64,000 nucleotides of DNA from Escherichia coli. Its GTDB lineage: Bacteria; Pseudomonadota; Gammaproteobacteria; Enterobacterales; Enterobacteriaceae. The position numbers were made by a program. Of the stretch, positions 33,101 to 35,677 are shown piece by piece (position 1 is the first letter of the stretch; the number at the start of each line of letters is the position of its first letter). The stretch lies in the NCBI RefSeq assembly GCF_003018255.1, contig NZ_CP027440.1; one strand, 5' to 3'.

Positions 33101-35677
33101 TGACATAAAGCAGGACGCCAACCGGCAGACCAATCACAAATCCAAAAAAACCGGATACGAAGGTCATTGCCAGCGTTTCCCATACGCCACGAACCAGCAG
33201 CCACATCATCGGCTCAGACATAACCCAGTACCTCTACTTTTACATGGTGTTCCTGCAGCCAGGTAATGGCGGCTTGCGTATCTTGTTGTGTGCCGTGCAT
33301 TTCAGTCAGCATGATGCCGAACTTAACGCCACCGGCGTAATCCATCTGCGCGCTAATAATGTTGTTGTTGACGTTGAAACGACGCGCGGTTTCAGAAAGC
33401 AGTGGGGCATCGACCGATTGACCGGTAAACTCCAGACGCAACATCGGCACGCAGTCAGTGAATGGCTCCGCTTGCAGACGTTCCTGGTAATCTTCCGGGA
33501 TATCCAGATGCAGGGTCGACTGAATAAACTTCTGCGCCAGCGGCGTTTTCGGATGCGAGAACACTTCACTTACCGTGTCCTGCTCGATCAGTTCGCCATT
33601 GCTGATGACCGCCACGCAATCACAAATACGCTTCACAACGTCCATTTCGTGGGTGATCAACAGAATCGTCAAACCCAGACGGCGGTTGATGTCTTTCAGC
33701 AGTTCGAGAATAGAACGTGTCGTTGCCGGATCCAGCGCGCTGGTGGCCTCATCACACAGCAATACTTTGGGATTGCTGGCTAACGCACGGGCAATCGCCA
33801 CACGCTGTTTCTGCCCACCGGAAAGATTCGACGGGTAGCTATCATGCTTATCGCCAAGACCAACCAATGACAGCAATTCCGTCACGCGACGTTTGATCTC
33901 ATCTTTCGGTGTGTTGTCCAGCTCCAGCGGCAGAGCCACGTTGCCAAAAACAGTACGCGAAGAGAGCAGGTTAAAATGCTGGAAAATCATACCAATCTGG
34001 CGGCGAGCTTTGGTCAACTCGGATTCTGACAGCGTGGTCAGTTCCTGGCCATCGACCAGCACGCTACCCTCGGTTGGGCGCTCCAGCAGGTTTACACAAC
34101 GTATAAGCGTACTCTTACCCGCGCCAGAGGCACCGATAACGCCATAAATTTGTCCAGCTGGCACATGCAGGCTGACGTTGTTCAACGCCTGGATGGTGCG
34201 GGTGCCCTGGTGGAACACTTTGGTGATATTCGAAAGTTTTATCATTGATTATTTATTATCGTCATTAAGTTAGTCGTGGCATTTCGAATGCCTGGAACGG
34301 GCAACGCCTTCAATGAAATGGATGTTAAGGCATCCAGACGTCTAAATCAATCAGGTTTATGCGAAGAGCACTTTCTTGCTGGTCGAAACATGCGATACTA
34401 GCGTCACATGCCTTATTAAGGAGCTATAAAAGGTGGCGAAGAGCGTACCCGCAATTTTTCTTGACCGTGATGGCACCATTAATGTCGATCACGGCTATGT
34501 CCATGAGATCGACAACTTTGAATTTATCGACGGTGTTATTGACGCCATGCGCGAGCTAAAAAAAATGGGCTTTGCGCTGGTGGTAGTAACCAACCAGTCT
34601 GGCATTGCTCGCGGTAAATTTACTGAAGCACAGTTTGAAACGCTGACCGAGTGGATGGACTGGTCGCTGGCGGACCGCGATGTCGATCTGGATGGTATCT
34701 ATTATTGCCCGCATCATCCGCAGGGTAGTGTTGAAGAGTTTCGCCAGGTCTGCGACTGCCGCAAACCACATCCGGGGATGCTTTTGTCAGCACGCGATTA
34801 TTTGCATATTGATATGGCCGCTTCTTATATGGTGGGCGATAAATTAGAAGATATGCAGGCAGCAGCTGCGGCGAACGTGGGAACAAAAGTGCTGGTGCGT
34901 ACGGGTAAACCTGTTACGCCTGAAGCAGAAAACGCGGCGGATTGGGTGTTAAATAGCCTGGCAGACCTGCCGCAAGCGATAAAAAAGCAGCAAAAACCGG
35001 CGTAATGATTAAAAGATGAGCGGTTGAAATAAAAATGCATTTTTCCGCTTGTCTTCCTGAGCCGACTCCCTATAATGCGCCTCCATCGACACGGCGGATG
35101 TGAATCGCTTCACACAAACAGCCGGTTCGGTTAAAGAGAAAAATCCTGAAATTCAGGGTTGACTCTGAAAGAGGAAAGCGTAATATACGCCACCTCGCGA
35201 CAGTGAGCTGAAAGCCGCGTCGCAACTGCTCTTTAACAATTTATCAGACAATCTGTGTGGGCACTCGAAGATACGGATTCTTAACGTCGCAAGACGAAAA
35301 ATGAATACCAAGTCTCAAGAGTGAACACGTAATTCATTACGAAGTTTAATTCTTTGAGCATCAAACTTTTAAATTGAAGAGTTTGATCATGGCTCAGATT
35401 GAACGCTGGCGGCAGGCCTAACACATGCAAGTCGAACGGTAACAGGAAACAGCTTGCTGTTTCGCTGACGAGTGGCGGACGGGTGAGTAATGTCTGGGAA
35501 ACTGCCTGATGGAGGGGGATAACTACTGGAAACGGTAGCTAATACCGCATAACGTCGCAAGACCAAAGAGGGGGACCTTCGGGCCTCTTGCCATCGGATG
35601 TGCCCAGATGGGATTAGCTAGTAGGTGGGGTAAAGGCTCACCTAGGCGACGATCCCTAGCTGGTCTGAGAGGATGAC

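Follow-up and report, generated by a model that had tools for sequence, protein, structure and literature searches.

The V1 region of the 16S rRNA gene at the rrnH position of this Escherichia coli chromosome very probably carries one of three common, long-standing helix 6 alleles, whose placement among the operons depends on the strain; its occurrence here would then be an effect of lineage and not a specialisation of rrnH. The allele itself is ordinary and already known. Three lines of evidence are set out below: the alignment with all seven 16S genes of K-12 MG1655, the seven copies of the nearest complete relative, and allele counts in 5426 complete E. coli genomes.

The rrnH locus and the helix 6 hairpin

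The window, by which we mean the whole stretch of 64,000 nucleotides that was analysed, contains an rrn operon and, further downstream, an additional tRNA gene:

35371..36912, + strand: 16S rRNA gene (rrsH, at the rrnH chromosomal position), full-length match to Rfam RF00177
36981..37175, + strand: spacer tRNA-Ile(GAT) and tRNA-Ala(TGC), the arrangement of rrnH, rrnA and rrnD
37350..40253, + strand: 23S rRNA gene
40349..40464, + strand: 5S rRNA gene
40519..40595, + strand: distal tRNA-Asp (aspU equivalent)
48740-48816: second tRNA-Asp (aspV equivalent), about 8 kb beyond the rrn operon

The RF00177 covariance model matches 35371-36912 on the + strand with 1580 bits over model positions 1-1533 (gathering score 50), identifying the gene as a bacterial small subunit rRNA. 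All seven rrs genes of MG1655 were retrieved and aligned with it; the gene is 1542 nt long and the alignment with every one of them is free of gaps. The gene order gmhB-rrs-tRNA-Ile-tRNA-Ala-23S-5S-tRNA-Asp-dkgB, with gmhB upstream and dkgB downstream, identifies the operon as rrnH by both position and content. The same order is annotated in K-12 and in strain JNE23-011, the flanks of which are collinear with the window over 47 kb.

Matches at the Rfam gathering score were also observed to t44 (1532-1618, upstream of rpsB), to CssrA, a family described from Shigella (2457-2566, in the rpsB-tsf spacer), and to StyR-44 (37243-37342, within the rrn spacer just 5′ of the 23S gene). The region 48820-64000, directly after the aspV-equivalent tRNA-Asp, holds a type VI secretion cluster (tssM, tssH, tssA, tssK and a VasL-domain protein). 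This region is covered to at least 80% in only 2043 of the 5426 genomes, and is 99.8% identical in the three closest strains, JNE23-011, JNE112863 and DETEC-S792.

Helix 6 forms the ‘spur’ at the periphery of the 30S body and is well known as a hypervariable region. The helix and the positions at which the window gene departs from rrsB were located as follows:

35431..35476, + strand: helix 6 (‘spur’, V1), 16S positions 61-106, from the structure line of the Rfam SSU model
35449..35450, + strand: 16S 79-80, AC here and GA in rrsB; 5′ side of pairs 79:90 and 80:89 (alignment and pair counting)
35459..35460, + strand: 16S 89-90, GT here and TC in rrsB; 3′ side of pairs 80:89 and 79:90 (alignment and pair counting)
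35463..35463, + strand: 16S 93, C here and T in rrsB; the G76.U93 wobble becomes G-C (alignment and pair counting)

The sequence at 35438-35470, inside the 16S gene, is ggtaacaggaaacagcttgctgtttcgctgacg, an exact match to the 33-mer quoted in the original prediction. That prediction described the V1 region as unlike rrsB and as a compensated variant of the rrsB-type helix, and both descriptions are borne out. There are five differences (79 G>A, 80 A>C, 89 T>G, 90 C>T and 93 T>C), by which pair 79:90 changes from G-C to A-U, pair 80:89 from A-U to C-G and pair 76:93 from G.U to G-C, with pairing retained throughout. In the Rfam SSU model alignment the helix forms a 7-bp stem GAAACAG/CUGUUUC (76-82 with 87-93) with a CUUG loop, and no non-standard pairs are flagged. 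Pair counting likewise gave 100% standard pairs, with both bases replaced in two pairs and a single base replaced in the third. The shuffle control of this counting is weak, with only three distinct alleles to work on: 56 of 500 shuffles reach the observed value. Compensation is better supported by the location of the changes, because all five sit on three pairs of one independently defined helix. Since the alleles change on both sides of base pairs, the helix 6 hairpin is kept.

Minimum-free-energy folding returned identical pairs for every helix 6 allele, with energies of -12.5 kcal/mol for the window, -9.8 for rrsB and -14.9 for rrsG. The window helix is thus predicted to be slightly more stable than that of rrsB. 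We saw no sign, in the sequence, pairing or frequency data, of a functional effect of the V1 change beyond retention of the helix, and our literature search found no published tests of helix 6 allele function. The helix 6 alleles may well be neutral or nearly so; a subtle effect is possible, by comparison with the helix 33 phenotypes of Kurylo et al. (2018).

Helix 6 alleles across operons and genomes

In K-12 MG1655 the V1 region of rrsH is the same as that of rrsB, rrsA and rrsE; rrsC and rrsD have the window allele, and a third allele (G79, C80, G89, C90, C93) belongs to rrsG. The seven K-12 copies therefore divide into four of rrsB type, two of window type and one of rrsG type. The window gene has A79, C80, G89, U90 and C93, and the rest of 61-106 is also identical to K-12 rrsC and rrsD. 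The original prediction held that V1 heterogeneity of this kind is known for the rrnH operon, and this attribution does not survive the alignment, as K-12 rrsH equals rrsB over the whole of 61-106 and helix 6 is no part of what makes rrsH distinct. Nor does it agree with the published assignments: ten head-domain variants set K-12 rrsH apart, of which nine lie in helix 33, and the helix 6 to helix 11 ‘foot’ variants are assigned to rrsD and rrsG (Kurylo et al. 2018, PMC6312700). It seems that two different kinds of K-12 heterogeneity had been merged.

To place the window among complete genomes, 25 kb of flank was compared with the 5426 E. coli genomes by megablast. The closest flanks, at 99.7-99.8% identity, belong to JNE23-011, JNE112863 and DETEC-S792. 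Contigs that encode exactly the TilS protein of the window were no closer, at 99.69% identity. JNE112863 (NZ_AP045072.1) was taken as the nearest complete relative and its seven rrs genes were located by synteny with K-12. The window-type V1 is present in rrsH, rrsD, rrsC, rrsA, rrsB and rrsE of this strain, and the rrsB type in rrsG only. The allele is thus the majority type in the nearest relative, six of seven copies, which again tells against a special connection with rrnH. That heterogeneity between rrs copies is ordinary, as the original prediction also supposed, is correct; the copies of K-12 and those of JNE112863 each differ among themselves in V1. We infer that the window V1 is the majority allele in the source lineage, that V1 is heterogeneous within its genomes and that the other six copies of the source resemble those of JNE112863; this statement about the genome rests on JNE112863, which is 99.7-99.8% identical in the flanks and is itself unlike the window in the helix 33 patch of rrsH.

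The frequency of each allele was assessed with 61-nt queries against the 5426 complete genomes, which hold 37,980 rrs places in total; the place counts below include a few near-exact matches:

Window-type V1: exact in 3575 of 5426 genomes; 8339 places
rrsB-type V1: exact in 3434 of 5426 genomes; 13,382 places
rrsG-type V1: exact in 2585 of 5426 genomes; 12,387 places, one-mismatch relatives included

The window allele accordingly makes up about 22% of the rrs copies of E. coli (8339 against 37,980 places) and occurs in two thirds of complete genomes. The K-12 rrsB sequence is just one of several common E. coli 16S alleles.

A scan of species-representative genomes with a degenerate V1-V2 pattern returned only eight loci and did not include a standard E. 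coli representative, so that it gives no cross-species view. The eight come from a record labelled Enterobacter cloacae, from E. coli E69, from Klebsiella indica and from two probable contaminant contigs. In the first of these, NZ_CP056117.1 (labelled Enterobacter cloacae DSM 26481), three rrs copies match E. coli V1-V2 exactly and have the GC/GC/C V1 of K-12 rrsG; either the rrsG-type V1 is common to taxa beyond Escherichia or the record is mislabelled. Exact E. coli-type V1-V2 sequences were observed on tiny contigs of two actinobacterial assemblies, Nocardioides sediminis (545 bp) and Nesterenkonia haasae (500 bp), and are most likely E. coli contamination.

Helix 33 and the mosaic structure of the gene

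Two further features distinguish the window gene from the 16S copies with which it was compared:

36372..36408, + strand: helix 33 (V6, ‘beak’) variant cluster, 16S 1002-1038, a third allele
35634..35634, + strand: 16S 264, A here and C in all 15 other copies compared; a separate known polymorphism

The helix 33 sequence begins ACAGAACCTTGTAGAGATACGAGGGTGCC. Among the genes compared we distinguish type I (the K-12 rrsB type), type II (the K-12 rrsH type) and type III (the window). Ten positions separate type III from type I; they make up five pairs, in each of which both bases are changed. Eight positions separate it from type II. An exact match to type III is present in 183 of 5426 genomes (about 3%), against 3247 for type II. 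The gene is not a K-12 rrsH-type variant 16S as defined by the ten head-domain variants and identity over 997-1044. In JNE112863, type I is found in rrsH and rrsE, type II in rrsD and type III in rrsG, rrsC, rrsA and rrsB. The location of helix 33 alleles is known to vary, EDL933 having the rrsH type in six of seven operons (PMC6312700). A264 lies in the context GGGGTAAAGGCTCACC; 803 of the 5426 genomes, Nissle 1917 among them, contain the surrounding 61 nt exactly.

Over 1-47355 the window and JNE23-011 differ at 112 positions. Most 1-kb bins have no differences at all, and the differences are concentrated in a few patches. Outside the rrn operon these lie at about 17-18 kb and about 26-29 kb; within it they are helix 33, the internal spacer at 37322-37329, the 23S gene at 37889-37900 and 40142-40152, and the 23S-5S spacer at 40279-40333. 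On this alignment the two strains are nearly clonal, and their differences show the pattern of recombination patches expected of near-clonal strains. The tight clusters within the operon match the expectation for short-patch gene conversion between paralogous operons. Homogenisation of rrn genes through conversion of short domains, together with polymorphic segments that have compensatory changes, has been described in reviews (PMC6002687).

When the window, JNE112863 and K-12 are taken together, V1 and helix 33 alleles are observed in seven of nine possible combinations; so many combinations in three genomes imply recombination between the two sites. The helix 33 patch of the window is that of JNE112863 rrsG, rrsC, rrsA and rrsB, and a donor therefore existed inside the lineage. 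We suggest that short-patch gene conversion among the seven operons could move the V1 patch and the helix 33 patch independently, that recombination between strains may move them as well, and that the V1 allele in the window rrsH would reflect the majority type of its lineage.

The importance of the V1 finding is small. It does make plain that V1 and V6 alleles are not tied to given rrn operons across strains, and it is relevant to variant calling from 16S amplicons, where one genome yields several sequence variants, and to claims of operon-encoded specialised ribosomes. The helix 33 result shows in addition that the link of rrnH with the K-12 rrsH-type beak fails in the source lineage; as a side result it is a minor extension of PMC6312700. 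Kurylo et al. (2018, PMC6312700) described natural helix 33 variants of 16S rRNA with phenotypic effects, proposed that helix 33 alleles tune the binding of stress factors and reported rrnH as the operon most upregulated by nutrient limitation. If helix 33 does act in this way, the rare allele at rrnH could conceivably give this lineage, under stress, a third functional class of ribosome, although we consider such a class very improbable.

Alternative explanations and comparison with known 16S genes

The reading contained in the original prediction, that the V1 change is an rrnH-specific ‘specialised ribosome’ variant of the stress-induced rrsH 16S rRNA, draws on the position of the gene at rrnH and on the functional variants for which K-12 rrsH is known (PMC6312700). 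It is nonetheless extremely unlikely: rrsH of K-12 has the rrsB-type V1 and the window allele sits in rrsC and rrsD, the rrsH variants of Kurylo et al. are in the head domain and helix 33 and not in helix 6, six of the seven JNE112863 copies have the allele, and so do about 22% of all E. coli rrs copies. On the strength of the K-12 alignment and the seven JNE112863 copies we rejected it. An artefact of short-read assembly of near-identical rrn repeats, giving either a chimeric rrs or a copy assigned to the wrong operon, deserves to be weighed since collapse and mis-phasing of repeats are a classic problem with rrn operons, and since the patches in which the window rrsH departs from the rrsH of its closest relatives are exactly those that vary between paralogues. 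Over its full 1542 nt, however, the gene has a 100% identical counterpart in the independent complete genome of FCI1, and at least 39 further genomes contain copies that differ from it by one base; the whole gene is therefore a known allele and unlikely to be a chimera of assembly. The combination of V1 and helix 33 alleles recurs in rrsC, rrsA and rrsB of JNE112863, and 2014C-3338, with a flank 99.5% identical, has the same helix 33 allele at its own rrnH position. We therefore give the artefact very little weight, and even a misassigned copy would leave the V1 conclusion unchanged.

An origin outside the lineage is somewhat easier to entertain, though still improbable. Here horizontal transfer of part of a 16S gene would have brought in the V1 allele, or the whole mosaic rrs, from a different species or lineage. 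Compensated multi-site differences in short segments are the pattern ascribed to such imports (Cilia et al. 1996 and Wang and Zhang 2000, summarised in PMC6002687), and the discrete patches outside rrn in which the window differs from a near-clonal relative point to active recombination between strains. Against this, two thirds of complete E. coli genomes have the V1 allele; any import must therefore be ancient and is now standing variation of the species. The paralogous copies of JNE112863 that share the helix 33 patch also make an internal donor sufficient. We note that import concerns the ultimate origin of the allele and is compatible with our preferred explanation, a common helix 6 allele placed at rrnH by the history of the lineage.

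The window gene can be compared directly with the known 16S genes. K-12 rrsB, the J01859-type reference, is the same gene with the same length and helix 6 fold, and is identical at 1526 of 1542 positions. The 16 differences comprise five in helix 6 (three pairs, compensated), A264, and ten in helix 33 (five pairs, both sides). K-12 rrsC and rrsD, identical to the window in helix 6, belong to other operons and differ from it at 12 and 15 positions respectively, the window having A264 and a different helix 33 allele. K-12 rrsH occupies the same operon position and shares A1002, C1006, G1023 and T1038 with the window, which is four of its ten defining head-domain variants (Kurylo et al. 2018, PMC6312700); the window has bases of its own at 1007, 1010, 1011, 1018, 1019 and 1022 and is without T1120. 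The rrsH of JNE112863 has the same V1 and an rrsB-type helix 33, and differs from the window gene only at 264 and in the helix 33 patch. The rrsC, rrsA and rrsB genes of the same strain, which belong to other operons, equal the window gene at all positions but 264.
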